NCBI GenBank assembly: GCA_964354805.1
Contig: CAYHBD010000032.1
Coordinates: 1 to 17,114, forward strand
Source: an uncultured archaeon
GTDB taxonomy: Archaea; Iainarchaeota; Iainarchaeia; Iainarchaeales; GCA-2688035
Length of the DNA: 17,114 bases
Reading direction: 5' to 3'
Part shown: positions 8,787 through 16,978 of the stretch, in pieces
How the letters are laid out: every line of letters starts with the position of its first letter
Position numbering within the stretch: position 1 is the stretch's first letter
The notes under the pieces: generated by a model
Seen by the model: only the letters and a program-made list of their open reading frames with translations
What the model was told of the DNA's origin: nothing
The model's database searches: none
Made by a program: the position numbers and the translations under genes

Positions 8787-10043
8787 TTATTTTTCTAAAA
8801 TTTTTGTAAATTTGCCTAATTCGCTTAATTTTATTTTCCTCTGCTTTCCGCTCTTCAAATTCTTCACAGTAATGCTTTTTTCTTTCAGTTCGTCTTCGCC
8901 GATTATTGCAACGAATGCTATGCCTTTCTTGTCAGCGTACTGGATGTTTTTGCCAATGCCCCTGTTCATCAAATCCATTTCGCAGCTCACGCCGGACTGC
9001 CTGATTTTTGCCGCAATCTGCAGGCATTTTTCAACGCACTTTTCCCCAACAGGCGCAATGAACAATTTTGTTTTGCTTTCAACCAGAATTTTTTTCTCCA
9101 ATGCTTCAAGCAATCTTTCAACTCCGAAGCTCCCTCCAACAGCAGGCGTTGGCGCTCCGCCATACAATTCAACCAGTTTATCATATCTGCCGCCGCCGCC
9201 AACACTCGGGCTGCCTTTAACGCACACCTCAAAAACCATACCAGTGTAATACTCCAAGCCCCTTGCAAGGCGCAAATCAAGGGAAACAAATTTTTCCAAG
9301 CCATTTTCTTTAAGCAATTTAAGCAGCGCTTGCATTTCCTGCAGGGGAACGGTGTTTTGCAATTTCAGCTTTTCCAGCTTGCCGCTTTCCAGTTGTCCAA
9401 GAATTTGTGTGTCAATTCCTTTTTGCTGCAGCTCTTTTTCTACGCCCTGCTTTCCAATCTTTTCCAATTTGTCAATGCTCCTGAAGCAATCAACAACTTT
9501 CTCTTTCTCCACGCCGCAGCTTAATGCAATCTCTTCCAGTAGCTTCCTGTTGTTGATTTTCACAGCAAACTCGCCTTTCTTGAATCCAAGCGCCTGCATC
9601 ACTGCTATTGCAACAGCGATTGTTTCAAAATCTGAAAGCATGCTGGCGCTGCCTACAATGTCCCAGTCCGCCTGGGTGAACTCCCTGTAACGCCTTTCCC
9701 CTGGCCTGTCATACCTGTAAACAGTGCCGATTTGGTATCTCTTGAATGGCTTTGGCAATTGCGGGTTTGATGCAACAACCCTGGCAAGTGGAACAGTCAA
9801 ATCAAAGCGCAGCCCGAGCTCTCTTTCGCTCTTGTCCTTGAAATAGTAAATCTCTTCTTTTATTGCTTCTCCGCCTGAGCCCTTTGCCGCAAGCAGGGCA
9901 AAGTCTTCCACAATCGGGGTTTCCAATGGCTGAAAGCCATAGCTCTCAAAAACCCGCCTGCAGGTGTCCTCTATCCGCTGCTTTTTCTCCGCCCTCTCAG
10001 GCAGAAAATCCTGCATTCCACGAACTGTCTGGAATTTTTCCAT
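8787..10043 (-). CDS. hisS: Histidine--tRNA ligase
   Basis: RGMQDFLP, LRFDLTVPLAR, YRYDRP...YREFTQ, LARGLEYYTG, GGGGRYD, FGVERL and a C-terminal anticodon-binding domain, so not HisZ. SD AGGTGA before ATG 10043. Confidence 0.97.
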   Translation of the reverse strand: MEKFQTVRGMQDFLPERAEKKQRIEDTCRRVFESYGFQPLETPIVEDFALLAAKGSGGEAIKEEIYYFKDKSERELGLRFDLTVPLARVVASNPQLPKPFKRYQIGTVYRYDRPGERRYREFTQADWDIVGSASMLSDFETIAVAIAVMQALGFKKGEFAVKINNRKLLEEIALSCGVEKEKVVDCFRSIDKLEKIGKQGVEKELQQKGIDTQILGQLESGKLEKLKLQNTVPLQEMQALLKLLKENGLEKFVSLDLRLARGLEYYTGMVFEVCVKGSPSVGGGGRYDKLVELYGGAPTPAVGGSFGVERLLEALEKKILVESKTKLFIAPVGEKCVEKCLQIAAKIRQSGVSCEMDLMNRGIGKNIQYADKKGIAFVAIIGEDELKEKSITVKNLKSGKQRKIKLSELGKFTKILEK

Positions 10044-10076: not shown

Positions 10077-10946
10077 TTAAACAATTACTTTCTGCAGGCT
10101 GTATTCAAGAATGTCTTCCGCGCCAGCCTTTTTGATTTTTGGTATAATTTCCCTTACCCTCTTTTTGTCCACTGCAACCTTTATTGCATACCCGCTTTCT
10201 CCATAAAGCTCGCTCACTGTCGGGCTTTTCATGCAGGGAAGCACTTTTATCAGCCTTTCAAAGTTTTCCTTTGAAACATTCATTTCAAGCAAAACCTTCT
10301 GCTCAGCCAAAAGCACGCCCTGCAGCAGGGCATTTATTTCTTTTATTTTTTCTCTTTTCCAGTTGTTTTCCCATGCCTGCTTGTTTGCAATCAGCACAGT
10401 GCTTGAGCGCAGCAGCTCGCCAATTATTCTCAGCTTGTTTGCCTTAAGCGAAGCCCCTGTTTCAGTCAATTCAACGATTGCATCAACAAGCAAAGGGCAC
10501 TTTGTTTCAGTTGCACCCCAGCTGAACTCGACTTTTGCGTTTACCCTGTTCTTGCGCAGGTAGCTTTTCGTTACCTGGACAAGCTCTGTTGCAATCCTTT
10601 TTCCCTCAAGACCTTTAACTGAACGAATCTTTGAATCCCTGTTCACTGCCAGCACCCATCTTACATTCCTGTTTGTTTTCTTTGCATACCGCAGCTCTGC
10701 AATTTCCTTTACCCTTGCTTTTGTTTCAATGCACCAGTCCCTGCCTGTTATGCTGGCATCTATCACGCCGTCCTCAACAAAGCGCGGCATTTCTTGGGCC
10801 CTGGCCATCATCAGTTGAATGCTGTTATCGTCTATTGAAGGGAAATAGCTTCTGCCATTAATGTTTATCTCAAACCCTGCCTTTTTGAACAGGTCCAGTG
10901 TCTTCTCTTCAAGGCTTCCTTTCGGTATCCCAAACACAAGCTTCAT
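10077..10946 (-). CDS. hisG: ATP phosphoribosyltransferase, long form
   Basis: [43 protein letters not shown] and a C-terminal regulatory domain. ATGA overlap with the hisI stop and a GGAGG SD. Confidence 0.96.
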
Positions 10947-11939
10947 TTCACAGCCTCCTTTTTGTTGAAAAAGCAACTATACGTGCCAGTATGGCACGCA
11001 TTCCCCCTTTGTTCAACCTTTAGCAAAACCGCGTCCCTGTCGCAGTCAAGCAAAATCTCTTTTACCTTCTGGCAATTTCCAGATGTTGCCCCTTTTTGCC
11101 AAATGCATTGCCTGCTTCTGCTCCAGTATGTTGCCTTGCCTGTTTCAATTGTTCTTTCCAATGATTCCCTGTTCATGAAAGCAAGCATCAGCACTCTGCC
11201 ACTGCTTTCATCCTGTGCAATCGCTGGAACTAGGCCTTTTCCTTTTGCAAAATCCACTGAATTGAATTCCATTATTTCTTGCAAGGAAATTTTTCCGCTG
11301 TAAAAAGCCATTCCAAGCACGCTGTCAAACCCTAAATTCTCCAGTGCAATGATTTCCCGCATGCTGCTTATGCCTCCTGCAAAGCTTTTCCTGTTGCTTG
11401 TTAACCCGCTTAATTCCTTTGCAAAAGCCGTGTTTGTCCCGCTCAGCATGCCCTCCTTTTCAATGCAGGTGAAAAGGAATTCCGAGCAATATGGCTCCAA
11501 TTCTTTCACCAAGTCAAGTGCATTTCTCCCTGTATTTTCTGTCCAGCCTTTTGCCATTACTTCTCCCTCCCAAGAATCAACTGCAGCGATGAAGGCAATC
11601 CCTCCCAAATTCTTTGCTCAGGCTTTGAAGGAACCCTTTGTCAGCTTTTGTGCCGATTATTATTTTTTTTGCACCCCATCCAAGCACTTGCCCTGCCTTC
11701 TTTATGCTTCTTATGCCTCCGCCAACCCTTGCATTTACAACAGCGCAGATTTCTTTGATTGCTTCGCTGTTATCGCCCTTGCCCATGGCGGCGTCTAAGT
11801 CAATCACTTGGACGGCAGGCAACGAAGACAAGGTCTGAGCAAAACGCACTGGCTCTTCTTCCAGCTGCAGCTGTTTCTCCTTTCCCTGCCTTAGCTGCAC
11901 AATTTTTCCATTCATCAAATCAATGCTTGCTATTATCAT
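10943..11939 (-). CDS. hisA: HisA-HisI fusion of about 331 aa, interrupted by a +1 frameshift at about 11588-11594
   Basis: Frame 0 (11939-11577) gives the HisA N-half ([34 protein letters not shown]). The +1 frame gives IAAVDS...KGW...EGMLSG...AGGI and then HisI ([34 protein letters not shown]). Joined product reads EFGRDCL-IAAVDS. Confidence 0.9.
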
Positions 11940-12752
11940 TGTAACACCTCCAATCCTTTGCTTTTCAAATATTCTTTCACCTGCTTAACAGTGAATTTTC
12001 CATAGTGGAAAACGCTTGCTCCCAAAACAGCGCTTGCTTTCCCTTCAGACAGAACCGTATACATGTCTTCAAGGCTGCCTGCACCGCCTGATGCAATCAC
12101 TGGAATTGCAACAGCCTGGCTTATTGCTTTGGTTAAAGCAATGTCAAACCCCTGCTGGGTTCCATCCTTGTCTATTGAAGTGAGCAGAATGCTGCCTGCG
12201 CCAAGTTTCTCAACAGTTTGCGCCCACTCAATTGCATCCAAGCCAGTATTTTTGCTCCCTGCGTTTATGAAGACATTCCATTTGTTTCCAACCTTCTGCG
12301 CGTCAATTGCTGAAACAACGGCGCTTTTGCCGAGTTTTTGCGAAAGCTGCTGCAGTAACCCCGGTTTCTTCACTGCTGCGCTGTTTACGCCTATTTTTGC
12401 TGCCCCTGCTTGAATCAATCCCTTGGCTTCTGCAACGCTTCTGATTCCTCCACCGATTGTTAGTGGAACAGTGCATGCAGCAGCTATTCTTTTCACTGCC
12501 GCAATCCTTGTTTTTCTTCGTTCCACTGTTGCATTGATGTCCAATACGACTATTTCATCTGCCTCCTGTGCGCAGTATTTTAGCACTTGTTGCACTGGAT
12601 CTCCGACCTTTTCCACATTCCTGAATTTCTTTCCCTTCACCAATTCAATCTTTCCATTGCTCAGATTGCAGTCCAAGCAAGGAATGACTTTCTTTATTTC
12701 TCTTTTGGTGAAGTCGCTCACCTTTTACACTTATGTCTATGTTTGAATTCAT
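11936..12752 (-). CDS. hisF: Imidazole glycerol phosphate synthase cyclase subunit; start is either ATG 12752 with a +1 frameshift or the SD-less GTG 12721
   Basis: VIPCLD, GDPV, ADEIVVLDI, GGGIRS, SAIDA, LLTSIDKDGT..GFD, IASGGAG, ASVFHY. The perfect SD GGAGGTGA (12759-12766) serves ATG 12752, whose frame ends after 35 aa at 12645. Confidence 0.93.
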
Positions 12753-12770
12753 CTTGATTCACCTCCAGAA

Positions 12771-12785
12771 TCAGTGATGATGAAG
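12771..12785 (-). promoter_or_regulatory. CTT CAT CAT CAC TGA (Leu-His-His-His-stop) element directly upstream of the hisF SD
   Basis: Read directly on the minus strand, 4 nt before GGAGGTGA. No canonical in-frame start codon between it and tRNA-His. Confidence 0.5.
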
Positions 12786-12811
12786 TAAACCACTTATAGA
12801 ATTAGTTTGAG

Positions 12812-12920
12812 GGCCGGTACCGGGAGTCGAACCCGGGCCTAAGGCTCGCTGTAGCTTTTGCGAGCTTTTTTCTAAAAAGCTCCCACAGGCCTCAATGCTA
12901 GCCACTACACCATACCAGCC
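12812..12920 (-). tRNA. tRNA-His(GTG) with encoded G-1 and a 36 nt intron at position 37/38 (12847-12882)
   Basis: G-1:C73, acceptor GCTGGTA/TACCGGC, anticodon stem GAGGC/GCCTT, T arm CCGGG-TTCGACT-CCCGG. Canonical BHB: central helix CTGT/ACAG, bulges GG|G and CG|A, intron helix AGCTTTT/AAAAGCT. Confidence 0.95.
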
Positions 12921-12923
12921 ATT

Positions 12924-13116
12924 CGCCGACACGCCCGGCGGGTTCGGGTCCGATTGCCTTACGGCAATCCGACGAGCTCGCCTTTCGGCTCGCATTCGCA
13001 GCCCTTCGGCAAAGCCTTTTTTGCTTTCGCAAAAAAGCCTCCTTGCAAAACCTTCGGTTTTGCGAGGTCCCGCAAAAGCAAAGCTTTTGCAGGATGGGAA
13101 AAAAAGCCTCTCGGCT
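12924..13116 (-). other. Dense hairpin array abutting the tRNA-His 5' end (structured leader, ncRNA or palindromic element)
   Basis: Hairpins at 12924-12940, 12952-12969, 12980-12989, 13017-13036, 13041-13067, 13068-13094 and 13105-13116. Four have GNRA loops on the minus strand (GTAA, GAAA, GAAA, GAGA). Confidence 0.6.
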
Positions 13117-13268
13117 GCTTTAGAATTAATTTTAAAGTAATTAAATTTGTTTCTGTTCTGGCAGCTACTTAAATCAAAAGAAAAAGTTTCATTGAATGTG
13201 AAGTAACTCACTTATCATAGCTGTCAATAAGATTTATGGGCGTATTTGTTTTAAAAACCCTTGCCTGT

Positions 13269-13592
13269 TCATCTGGCTCTTGCAATTGCCTCAACTTTCT
13301 TTGGCGCTGTTTCTTCAATCATTCTTGCTTCGAACCGCAGGATGTCTTTTACCATCGGGCTTTTAGTGTTTAATGTAAACAGTTTTGTGTTTCCAAAAGT
13401 CCTTGTGACCCTGATTAAGTCAAGTTCCTGCAGCTTGTGCCAGTGCTTGAATAGGGCGCCCTTGCTCACGCCTGCAAGCTGCTGCACTTCCTTTTTGCTG
13501 TATTCCCCGCCAATATTGTCAATGAATGTGTCAAGAATTCTAATAAACGGGTTGTCTCCAAAAAATCGAACAAGATTTGTTTCCTCGCGCAT
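13269..13592 (-). CDS. Small winged helix-turn-helix protein
   Basis: FGDNPFIRILD...YSKKEVQQLAGVSKGALFKHWHKLQELDLIRVTRTFGNTKLFTLN gives an HTH plus wing pattern. Confidence 0.75.
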   Translation of the reverse strand: MREETNLVRFFGDNPFIRILDTFIDNIGGEYSKKEVQQLAGVSKGALFKHWHKLQELDLIRVTRTFGNTKLFTLNTKSPMVKDILRFEARMIEETAPKKVEAIARAR

Positions 13593-13769
13593 ATTCCGTC
13601 AATTAACTTGCCAAAGGCAAGTCTGTAAAAAACTTACTTTTAAGGTCCATTCAAATAGACTCTTTGATTCGCCAAAAAGAAGGTTGAAAGAGCAGTTAAA
13701 TAAAACAAGCAATTTAAAATTTAAAGGCTTCTTAATATTAATTATAAAATCGTTTTTTGGGTGTTTTGT

Positions 13770-15116
13770 GTGAAGCTTTGGCAGAAGGGAACTGTTTCTT
13801 TGGACAAGAGGATTGAGCGATTTAATGTCGGCAGGGACACTAAGCTTGACCAGCATTTGGTTCAGTTTGACTGCATTGCCTCAATGGCGCATGCAAAAAT
13901 GCTGCAAAAGACCGGGATTTTGAGCGGAGCTGAATTCAAGAGATTGCGAAAGCAGCTTGCTGCAATAATTGAATTGGATAAAAAGGACAGATTTGAGCTG
14001 CAGCAGGAAGACGAGGATGTTCACACAAAGATTGAGAATTTTTTAACAGAAAAATTGGGCGATTTGGGCAAAAAGATTCATACCTGCAGAAGCAGAAACG
14101 ACCAGGTTTTGGTTGATTTGCGTTTGTACAGCAAAAGGCAGCTGCTCTTGATAATAAGAGATTTGGCGCAATTGTGTTCCAATCTGCTCAAGCTGGCTGA
14201 AAGGAATGAATTTGTTGCAATGCCAGGCTACACTCATACAAGGCCTGCAATGCCTTCTTCGGTTGGCTTGTGGATTGCCAGCTTTGTTGAATCCCTTTTG
14301 GATGACCTGCAGCTGCTTTGGTGTGCTTTTGATTTGAATGACCAGAACCCTTTGGGTAGCGCTGCAGGCTATGGCGTTGGCCTGCCTATTGACAGGGCTT
14401 TGACAACCAAGCTGCTTGGCTTCGACAGATTGCAGAACAATGTTTTGTATGTGCAGACCAGCAGGGGAAAGATCGAGTCAGTTATTCTGGGAGCTTTGCT
14501 GCAGGTAAGCGTTGATTTGGGAAGGCTTGCTAGTGATTTGATTTTGTTCAGTTCGCCTGAATTCAATTTCGTTTCATTGCCTGAACAGTTTTGCACTGGG
14601 AGCAGCATTATGCCCCAGAAGAAAAACCCTGATGTCCTTGAGTTAATTAGGGCAAAAACAGCTGCAATGCTGGGCTACTTCATCCAGACAATTGATACAA
14701 TCAAGAGCATGTACAGCGGCTACCACAGGGATTTGCAGCTGACAAAAGAGCCTTTGATGAATGGATTGCATCTTGCAAGGGAATGCATTGACATTTTCTC
14801 GCTTATCATAGAAAAGCTGCAGGTGAATAAAAGCGCTGCTATTAGAGGCTGTTCTCGTGAATTGTTTGCTGCTGACAAGGCGCTTGAGTTAGCCCAAAGG
14901 GGCCTGCCTTTCAGGGATGCTTACAGGGTTATTTCCGAAAGCAAATTTGATTTTGTTGTCGATGCGGTTGAGAACATCAAGAGGAAAAAGCATTTGGGTG
15001 CGACAGGAAACCTTGGATTGCGTAAATTAAGGGGCCTGATTGCAGAGCAGAAGCGGAAAGTGCAGAAGGAAAAGAATGCGTTTGAAAAAAAGATGAATGC
15101 TGTTCTGCGCTTGTAA
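13770..15116 (+). CDS. argH: Argininosuccinate lyase
   Basis: KLW, EDVHTKIE, IHTCRSRNDQV, MPGYTH, PLGSAAGYG, TGSSIMPQKKNPD..ELIR, GYHRDLQ. Start GTG 13770 (or 13761). Confidence 0.97.
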   Translation: MKLWQKGTVSLDKRIERFNVGRDTKLDQHLVQFDCIASMAHAKMLQKTGILSGAEFKRLRKQLAAIIELDKKDRFELQQEDEDVHTKIENFLTEKLGDLGKKIHTCRSRNDQVLVDLRLYSKRQLLLIIRDLAQLCSNLLKLAERNEFVAMPGYTHTRPAMPSSVGLWIASFVESLLDDLQLLWCAFDLNDQNPLGSAAGYGVGLPIDRALTTKLLGFDRLQNNVLYVQTSRGKIESVILGALLQVSVDLGRLASDLILFSSPEFNFVSLPEQFCTGSSIMPQKKNPDVLELIRAKTAAMLGYFIQTIDTIKSMYSGYHRDLQLTKEPLMNGLHLARECIDIFSLIIEKLQVNKSAAIRGCSRELFAADKALELAQRGLPFRDAYRVISESKFDFVVDAVENIKRKKHLGATGNLGLRKLRGLIAEQKRKVQKEKNAFEKKMNAVLRL

Positions 15117-15290
15117 TTTGATTTGAAATTTGGTTGTTTGAAGGAAAGAATTGCAGGGCGCTTGTAATTTTATTTGGTTTTTTTTAAAGAAAGAATTGTA
15201 TGTGCTGTAATTTTTTTTGGGTTGGTTTGGGATTTGGTTTTTTGAAATAAAGAATTGCAGTGTGTTATAATTTTTTTCAGGAGAATTGCA
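15107..15290. repeat. Four degenerate tandem units filling the argH-RSH intergenic region
   Basis: Units begin gcgcttgtaattt (15107, 15158), gtgctgtaattt (15202) and gtgttataattt (15262). Each ends in agaattgya and the first three contain atttggtt. Confidence 0.75.
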
Positions 15291-16978
15291 TGGAGAAGCG
15301 TTCTGATAATGAATTGAAAAAATTGCTTGCGATTGTCAAAAAGAATTACCCTGACTGTGATTCTGCACTAATTCAGAACGCTTTTTTGTTTGCAAAAAAG
15401 GCCCACAGGTATCAAAGAAGAGAGTCCAAACAGCCTTTTTTTATTCATCCTGTTGCAACAGCATTCATTTTGGCTGAGCTAGGGGCTGATAGCAAAACAG
15501 TTGCGGCTGCTTTGCTGCATGATGTTCTGGAGGACACCAAGACAAGCCCAAAACAACTTCGTTCCCTGTTTGGCGCCGATGTTTTAAGGCTTGTTCAGGG
15601 CGTTACCAAATTGAGTAAGCTTGCAGAGCAAAAGCAGAGTGCAAGGGCAGCAGCGAACCTGCAGCATTTGCTGCTTGCGACAACAAAAGAACCCAGGGTT
15701 ATTGTAATAAAGCTTGCTGACAAGCTGCATAACCTGAGAACACTGCGCTTTCTGCCAAGCGAGGACAGGCACAGGATTGCTGCTGAGGCATTGGCTGTGT
15801 ATGCTCCAATTGCTTTAAAGTTGGGCATTCATGCTTTGTATAATGAAATGAGTGGTTTGGCTTTCAAATATTTGAAGCCAGAGATTTACAGCAGTTTGAA
15901 AAGAAGCGTTATAAAAAAAGAGAAAGCAAAGCGGCCTGAAATCAATGCAATGATTGGCATAATCAAGAAGAAAGTTGGCAAGAGCTTTTTGTTCAGCATT
16001 GATGAGAAAACGTTTTTCGCTATTTATTCAAAAATGCAGACAAAGGAGAAAAGCTTGGATGAGGTGCCTGACACACTTGTTTTGAAAATCATTGCGCCAA
16101 CAGTTGCTGACTGCTATTGCCTTCTTGGAACACTGCACAGCCTTTTCACACCCCTGCCTGGAAAAATAAAGGACTACATTGCTTTGCCCCAGCCTAACCT
16201 GTACCAGGCGCTGCATTCAACTGTTCTTGGCCCAAAAGGAACCCCTATGAAGATTCGGATTGCCACAAAAGAGATGCAGGAAATAACAAAAAAAGGAATC
16301 ATTGCTTTCTGGCAGCTGCAAAGCAAGGGAACAGACAAGCTGCTGCACAAAAACATTGCGCTGCTTGCAAAGTTAATGAGCAAAAGCGCTGCTGCCGGAA
16401 ACGAGGATTTTGTCGATGCCCTGAAATCGGATTTTCTGGCAAAAACAATAACTGTTTTTTCAGCAGACGGTGAAGCGATTGAGTTGCCAGCTGGCGCTAC
16501 TCCTATTGATTTCGCGTTTCACTTTGATAAAAAGAGCGCTTTGAGGCTTTGGGAGGTGAAGGTTAATGGAAAATTTGTTTCCCTTTCAAGAAAGCTTGAA
16601 AGCGGTGACATTGTTGAAACAATTTCCTCAAGCGAAGTGCAGGTAAAGGAATCATGGCTGCATTCTGTGAAAAGCTTTGCGGCAAAAAAAGCAATCAAGG
16701 CCTTTTTGCGCTCGCAGCGCGCTTTATGGAAACAAATGCCATCGATTGATTTAAATGTTGAAGTAAACGATGTTGTCGGCGTGCTTGCTGCAATCAGCAG
16801 GGCACTTAGCAGCAATGGAATCGACATCAGGGCAGCGTCGGTTGGAACAATGCCAAACGCAAAATCAGAATGCCACTTCAACCTGGAATTCCCAAGCGCT
16901 GAAAAATTAAGGAAAACAATGGATAAAATAAAGAAAATAAAAGACGTGAAATCAGTAGAGATAATTTACAGGGAATAA
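15290..16978 (+). CDS. Long RelA/SpoT homologue (HD hydrolase, degenerate synthetase, TGS, ACT)
   Basis: AHRYQRR, FIHP, LLHDVLEDT, IKLADKLHN, KDYIALP..YQALHST, LPAGATPIDFA, KVNGKFV, and C-terminal ACT EVNDVVGVLAAI. SD-like AGGAG before ATG 15290. Confidence 0.92.
   Translation: MEKRSDNELKKLLAIVKKNYPDCDSALIQNAFLFAKKAHRYQRRESKQPFFIHPVATAFILAELGADSKTVAAALLHDVLEDTKTSPKQLRSLFGADVLRLVQGVTKLSKLAEQKQSARAAANLQHLLLATTKEPRVIVIKLADKLHNLRTLRFLPSEDRHRIAAEALAVYAPIALKLGIHALYNEMSGLAFKYLKPEIYSSLKRSVIKKEKAKRPEINAMIGIIKKKVGKSFLFSIDEKTFFAIYSKMQTKEKSLDEVPDTLVLKIIAPTVADCYCLLGTLHSLFTPLPGKIKDYIALPQPNLYQALHSTVLGPKGTPMKIRIATKEMQEITKKGIIAFWQLQSKGTDKLLHKNIALLAKLMSKSAAAGNEDFVDALKSDFLAKTITVFSADGEAIELPAGATPIDFAFHFDKKSALRLWEVKVNGKFVSLSRKLESGDIVETISSSEVQVKESWLHSVKSFAAKKAIKAFLRSQRALWKQMPSIDLNVEVNDVVGVLAAISRALSSNGIDIRAASVGTMPNAKSECHFNLEFPSAEKLRKTMDKIKKIKDVKSVEIIYRE

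Follow-up and report, generated by a model that had tools for sequence, protein, structure and literature searches.

A candidate histidine-sensing +1 frameshift site within the hisA-hisI gene of an uncultured Iainarchaeota archaeon

How can a gene of histidine biosynthesis give rise to an enzyme when its coding sequence is divided between two reading frames? This question is raised by the his operon located on the minus strand of a 17,114-nt stretch of DNA (hereafter the window) from an uncultured archaeon, whose nearest named relatives are Candidatus Iainarchaeum / Diapherotrites (Iainarchaeota). The split hisA-hisI gene, of which no second copy was found in the source genome, consists of (i) a zero frame of 120 codons (11577..11939), which has its own strong SD sequence and encodes the N-terminal half-barrel of HisA, including Asp7, and (ii) a +1 frame of 215 codons (10943..11590), encoding strand 5 with Asp121, the C-terminal HisA half and a fused HisI. 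In the output of annotation pipelines the gene appears as two products, a hypothetical protein of 120 aa and a truncated HisI. Our sequence analysis indicates that the site connecting the two frames is very likely a programmed +1 ribosomal frameshift, and probably one that senses charged tRNA-His; the frameshift would probably let the cell make HisA-HisI under histidine scarcity.

The frame break and the protein it divides

The start codon of hisA overlaps the stop codon of hisF (11936..12709) in the sequence ATGA, and a second ATGA joins the stop codon of hisA-hisI to the ATG of hisG (10077..10946). The latter overlap was present in every carrier checked (we refer to the genomes sharing the short hisA frame as carriers); overlaps of this type bring about translational coupling in archaea (PMC6728339, PMC10666635). 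The final gene of the operon, hisS (8787..10043, 418 codons), encodes histidyl-tRNA synthetase. There are no His codons in hisG or hisS, so that HisG (289 aa) and HisRS (418 aa) of the window contain no histidine, and neither does HisC (571 aa) of the related locus L118. The divergent flank of the his leader carries, on the plus strand, an argininosuccinate lyase-like gene and a RelA/SpoT-family gene (13761-15116, 15260-16978), the latter assigned through its L118 orthologue; this arrangement is kept in L118 and L120. Archaea do not usually have RelA/SpoT homologues.

In comparison with 25 intact homologues, hisA-hisI contains exactly one base too many, and the surplus base is situated at CTT-CAT, where the original prediction had placed the break. 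The shift site CTT-CAT-C occupies positions 11588..11594 (minus strand). With Leu116 (CTT, 11594-11592) in the P site, the A site presents either His117 (CAT, 11591-11589) in the zero frame or, if base 11591 is skipped, Ile (ATC, 11590-11588) in the +1 frame. The zero frame is terminated four codons past the His codon by a TGA (11577..11579), which in all carriers is built from NTT-GAY of the +1 frame. The +1 frame itself is preceded by a TGA at 11620-11618 and stays open from 11617 to 10943; its overlap with the zero frame amounts to 41 nt, in line with the 40 nt or so anticipated. It had also been predicted that there is no homopolymer at the site, that both frames are HisA-like and that both halves retain their catalytic Asp motifs free of other lesions. 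All of this held: Pfam His_biosynth matches each half and PRA-CH the tail, Asp7 and Asp121 are present, and hisA-hisI is otherwise unbroken. That His117 is the only His of the 120-codon frame is likewise true, but it is a precondition which does not discriminate between explanations, since all 25 intact homologues also lack His before the site.

When CATC is read as one step, the two overlapping frames jointly yield one member of a protein family, a 331-aa HisA-HisI. This product covers positions 1-230 of the 231 of TIGR00007, and aligns end to end with that model and with solved HisA and PriA chains. The HisI part scored above the cut-off of its family (NF000768; 162.7 bits versus 126), whereas the HisA part, in spite of full-length cover, remained below the curated cut-off of the HisA equivalog (TIGR00007; 163 bits versus 229). 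The Asp residues at the ends of strands 1 and 5 and the glycine-rich phosphate sites are present, with motifs as in intact relatives. Judged from its sequence, the reconstructed protein is HisA-like in a working but divergent form, with HisA as its best family and a his-operon context. The break sits at the junction of the two HisA half-barrels.

Re-pairing that is consistent among all carriers (on UUC) is obtained only if the ribosome moves by +1 with CUU as the P-site codon. Neither a -2 shift nor slippage at codons 115 or 117 allows it, and these alternatives were rejected. An in-frame CTT-CAA 12 codons upstream (11630-11625, minus strand; codons 104-105) offers a natural negative control, since it lacks conservation and is followed directly by a +1 stop.

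Conservation of the shift site and its context

A search of 101 related genomes revealed two further genera with the same short hisA frame. In the protein collection, the short frame is represented by eight clusters from at least three genera (59-92% identity between clusters), each exactly 120 aa long and ending in Leu-His-x-x-x-stop; a profile search yielded no ninth cluster. The DNA of 14 loci, representing the eight clusters, contained CTT-CAT in every case. A single-base consensus error, which had been named as the observation that would overturn the prediction, is contradicted by the occurrence of the same break in independent assemblies from NCBI, JGI, ENA and Logan, which represent divergent organisms. 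Among the contigs from sequencing runs, none of the source strain crosses the shift site; two from relatives (X1 and X6) do so without an indel, and a 151-nt fragment in X2 (depth 2), which gave a gapped alignment near it, was set aside. The carriers occupy one side of a branch with a support of 100/100, and on this phylogenetic evidence the in-gene break is of single origin and was subsequently retained. No other in-gene CTT-CAY break was detected in his genes among the fetched loci.

Relaxed selection downstream of the break, the other outcome considered fatal to the prediction, was not observed. The dN/dS values were alike on both halves, with no downstream rise: approximately 0.1 at deep distances (several pairs being saturated) and 0.23-0.27 in comparisons with the two nearest relatives. 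Such purifying selection on both halves supports the view, already expressed in the prediction, that their integrity argues against decay. Moreover, the variable bases, which fall on zero-frame third positions before CTT-C, fall on those of the +1 frame from precisely this point onwards, and this switch in the phase of silent variation fixes the crossover there. Behind the His codon the zero-frame tail is free to vary, in contrast to the +1 frame, which retains Ile-Ala-Ala-(Val/Ile/Leu)-Asp.

The shift site is conserved across divergent genomes beyond the needs of the protein. Codon 116 is CTT in 6/6 lineages, whereas none of the 13 other Leu columns kept one codon and only 1/64 four-fold columns were invariant; the intact homologues have Leu in this column in one case out of 25. 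The T responsible for the zero-frame stop is present in 6/6 carriers beneath three different residues, compared with 6/17 intact genes.

Upstream of the site there is an SD-like element (11598..11606, minus strand) complementary to the 3' tail of 16S rRNA, which reads GGATCACCTCC in the source genome. Its GGAGG (11605-11601) lies 6 nt before CTT, as predicted. The literal GGAGG is not conserved in the carriers but the complementarity is: the 16 nt upstream of CTT pair with the 16S tail at -8 to -16 kcal/mol in the carriers, against a median of -4 in intact genes; as the carriers are kin, the p value of this difference is overstated. The spacing (6-7 nt in carriers) corresponds to the short edge of the initiation spacing of the source genome (peak 7-11 nt). 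Known shift sites have the SD sequence at 3 nt (+1) or 9-14 nt (-1) (PMC5009743), and the caution of the original prediction, that the distance exceeds the 3 nt of prfB and leaves the role of the element uncertain, was appropriate; a pausing or mild pushing role is possible. Folding downstream of the site (z from -0.8 to +1.4) provided no sign of a 3' stimulatory structure.

The source genome encodes tRNA-Leu(GAG), tRNA-Ile(GAU) and a single tRNA-His(GUG). In its long ORFs, the NNT-C junction avoided most strongly is CTT-C (ratio 0.26). A shift-prone sequence would be expected to show such avoidance, but the ratio of CGT-C is almost as low and other causes are possible. A slow A site is known to drive +1 shifting at CUU (PMC5009743).

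From these elements the following mechanism can be proposed. Ribosomes would initiate at the SD of hisA and proceed until Leu116 (CUU) occupies the P site and CAU the A site. With histidine plentiful, His-tRNA would decode CAU, and the stop four codons further on would release an inactive half-barrel. When His-tRNA is in short supply, the A site would remain empty and peptidyl-tRNA-Leu(GAG) could re-pair on UUC, a pairing that we infer from the presence of the tRNA gene; Ile-tRNA would then read AUC and translation would continue to full HisA-HisI. As the stop codon of hisA-hisI overlaps the start of hisG, expression of hisG may be coupled to the shift. Owing to its strong SD, hisA could escape leader control, which the in-gene gate would re-impose on hisA-hisI and perhaps hisG. 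All carriers have this strong SD, but many intact relatives have an equally strong one, and a rationale of restored control is thus not required.

Leader gates, histidine as the candidate signal and competing explanations

The cassette found in hisA occurs three more times upstream of it (minus strand). Leader 1 (13198..13218) begins at ATG 13218 and runs into shift site 1 (CTT-CAC, 13203-13198), whose +1 frame is open for 142 codons, as far as site 2 (CTT-CAT, 12780..12785). The +1 frame of site 2 comprises 10 codons and stops on the ATG (12752) of leader 3 (12708..12752), which ends in shift site 3 (CTT-CAC, 12713-12708); the +1 frame of the latter is hisF. The three sites (13203, 12785, 12713) therefore chain frame to frame, from the +1 frame of site 1 to the zero frame of site 2, then leader 3 and hisF. 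Inside the +1 frame of site 1 lies tRNA-His(GUG), with a 36-nt intron (12811..12919), the only such gene found in the genome. A feature called as tRNA-Ser(aga) when the intron option is omitted is in fact this tRNA-His. The frame across tRNA-His is open in 24/24 related loci, some of them duplicates.

Relatives retain the leader chain, with differing lengths and free +1 residues. At the leader sites the +1 residue is Thr or Ile and the third base is variable, and the A-site codon is still His. GTT replaces CTT at some of them, which fits a general NUU-C slip. Genome G009 (locus L154) has four leader sites in addition to the hisA site, and the latter fits the leader motif exactly. No Rfam leader was matched within 11400-13400. 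In L135 and L143, downstream of tRNA-His, a His-codon gate enters in +1 an ORF of 235-248 aa that is not a his gene and which we take to be amino-acid racemase-like.

Among 215 genomes of the phylum, the leader motif ended in His in 63 cases, Gln in 19 and Tyr or stop in 21; outside the family of the source genome the respective numbers were 34, 17 and 19. The motif was derived from that same family and its carriers are kin, and the specificity for His leans on the leader sites. The A-site codon is specific for the end product of the pathway, as expected of an amino-acid switch, but at the in-gene site alone this specificity is weak, because the Ile that follows and re-pairing on UUY allow only His or Tyr codons. 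As two-fold pyrimidine columns are invariant in 9/31 cases, the presence of C, and not T, as the skipped base is by itself weak evidence. The predicted translated path contains 2 His codons in 1464, against approximately 22 expected, which makes the gates nearly the only points at which the ribosome waits for His-tRNA. When the CTT cassette was sought with other amino acids in the source genome, the matches were single, and those recognised (presumably in genes for a release factor and NAD synthetase) were ordinary in-frame coding. Taken as a sequence-based case, these data make it probable that the switch senses histidine.

This reading has to be reconciled with the gene content of the source genome (88.5% complete), which yielded neither hisD, hisB nor hisE, and in which no match to hisC or hisH reached the orthologue level. 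With the distal his genes not found, the pathway here may not end in histidine, and instead of histidine synthesis the loop may support hisS or the supply of AICAR. The gate also exists in fuller operons, since hisD, hisC, hisB and hisH are kept in L118 (HisA 90% identical) and G009. HisE (PF01503), expected to hydrolyse PR-ATP, was not found in three carrier genomes (G000, G001 and G009), of which G009 has hisD.

Several carriers (the window, L111, L120 and L153) have hisD, hisC, hisB and hisH missing or reduced between the leader and hisF. In the window and L111, hisF is joined directly in the +1 frame of leader site 3, and L120 contains a 173-aa hisD-hisB remnant. The hisF of the window (11936-12721) is 54% identical to that of L118 (9234-10004), though hisG and hisS of L118 are more than 90% identical. 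The window-type hisF was found where hisH is absent (L031, L111, L115 and L120). This distribution of the two hisF types suggests a replacement.

An unlikely explanation, albeit one that deserves attention, is a corrective frameshift of set ratio, in which an old one-base insertion would be rescued with constant efficiency at a shift-prone CUU-C and His would not act as a sensor. It draws on the restriction of the in-gene codon to His or Tyr, on the fact that the C alone is not strongly significant, and on the possible loss of the distal pathway in the source genome. It does not explain why the A-site codon is His at leader sites where the +1 residue is free and the third base varies. In addition, a lesion should revert by loss of one base somewhere, and no reverted member was seen within the clade; finally, the affected gene is a his gene and its site copies the leader cassette of the operon.

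The position of the break at the half-barrel junction might suggest instead a split gene, in which the half-barrels assemble from two chains, the second starting at AUC/AUU behind the SD-like element or at Met128. The distance from this element to AUC/AUU (10-11 nt) falls within the initiation range of the genome, yet the codon is ATC or ATT and never ATG, although ATG would spare the His codon, and the invariant CTT is left unexplained. Met128 (ATG, 11555..11557, minus strand) is invariant in carriers and absent from the 25 intact homologues, and as a possible internal start it could supply a HisI-bearing fragment without a shift. Active HisA is impossible from this start, as the product omits Asp121 together with strand 5, both of which are under selection in the +1 frame. 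Furthermore, Met128 is placed 19 nt beyond the stop, too far for efficient termination-reinitiation (PMC10666635). A stronger SD before Met128 was considered and rejected, as it did not differ from that in intact genes (p 0.15), and an upstream TTG start is not conserved (absent in L031 and L115-L122). We regard the split-gene explanation as improbable.

Correction at the RNA level (transcriptional slippage, editing or a micro-intron) appears more improbable still: slippage has no homopolymer to act on, exactly one extra base relative to intact homologues leaves no room for an intron, and conservation tracks the codon phase, with CTT in the P site followed by His. Assembly error or a decaying pseudogene, to which the loss of operon parts in several carriers and an unrelated frame lesion in hisB of G009 might point, can be rejected almost with certainty, given that independent assemblies from at least three genera within one clade share the break, that both halves are under purifying selection with low dN/dS, that hisA-hisI, hisG and hisS have no further lesions, and that no indel is present where X1 and X6 cross the site.

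The frame break in hisB of G009 (L154, 4400-4450) lies away from any CTT-CAY and represents a lesion or an assembly error. Single frame breaks without CTT-CAY also occur in relatives with intact hisA (hisF of L013 / L161 and hisB of L163) and are probably errors.

Relation to known recoding systems

The proposed programmed frameshift in hisA resembles that of bacterial prfB (CUU-UGA-C) in the P-site CUU, the +1 direction, first-position G:U re-pairing and the upstream SD-like element, as well as in its negative-feedback logic, the full protein being obtained only from shifted ribosomes (PMC5009743). In contrast to prfB, where UGA and RF2 are involved and the SD lies at 3 nt, the A site holds a sense His codon (CAT in all carriers), charged tRNA-His would be sensed, re-pairing would occur on UUC and the SD-like element is 6-7 nt away. 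The gene, moreover, is hisA-hisI, the host is an archaeon, the site is in the middle of an enzyme and the cassette is present four times in one operon. Yeast Ty1, ABP140 and EST3 (CUU-AGG-C, CUU-AGU-U) share the P-site CUU with a slow sense codon in the A site within a coding sequence, but depend on a rare tRNA and a set ratio, whereas the hisA codon names the end product of its own pathway.

A further parallel exists with the attenuation of enterobacterial hisL and pheL, in which a biosynthetic operon responds to amino-acid supply through the behaviour of the ribosome at the cognate codons. In hisL, the behaviour of the ribosome at the His codons of the leader peptide reports the supply of histidine. 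These leaders use runs of codons, hairpins and transcription termination, while here single His codons would switch the frame; the in-gene site has one His codon, no Rfam leader and no 3' fold. Frameshifting in pheL has been judged incidental (PMC5009743). The antizyme +1 frameshift, like the one proposed here, both senses a metabolite and effects the response to it, but polyamines, an A-site stop codon and eukaryotic stimulators belong to antizyme.

In hungry-codon frameshifting (Gallant), as in our model, an A site left empty by shortage of aminoacyl-tRNA provokes the shift. Such events are known as an error or a reporter effect, unlike the hisA shift, which would be selected and required for the enzyme. 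As of 2016 there was no known example of hungry-codon frameshifting used for starvation-specific trans-frame proteins (PMC5009743). Archaeal recoding includes fucA1 (-1), magnesium chelatase (-1, predicted) and the virus HSTV-2 (+1, predicted); a 2021 review lists one tested cellular frameshift, of the -1 type, with no cellular +1 and none tied to an amino acid (PMC8211752). Our literature search, which covered few subscription journals, found no published description of an amino-acid-sensing His-codon frameshift.

Sensor-effector +1 shifting at CUU is already known from prfB and antizyme; new would be the signal that is sensed, the occurrence in Archaea and the serial arrangement. The in-gene copy provides the cleanest evidence, because the junction can be placed to the codon by protein homology, the enzyme can be assayed and intact sister genes serve as a control. 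An old question of the recoding field, namely whether starvation-driven frameshifting can be purposeful, can thereby be put to a direct test, with a clear prediction, using a cassette of about 20 nt. If the proposed mechanism is true, hisA-hisI would be an archaeal cellular gene with a programmed +1 frameshift, and the first in our literature search for which such a frameshift senses an amino acid. For the phylum as a whole, the sequences make it rather likely that his genes are regulated by serial His-codon +1 frameshifts which replace attenuation, and that the clade of the source genome has moved one of these gates into the gene of an enzyme.
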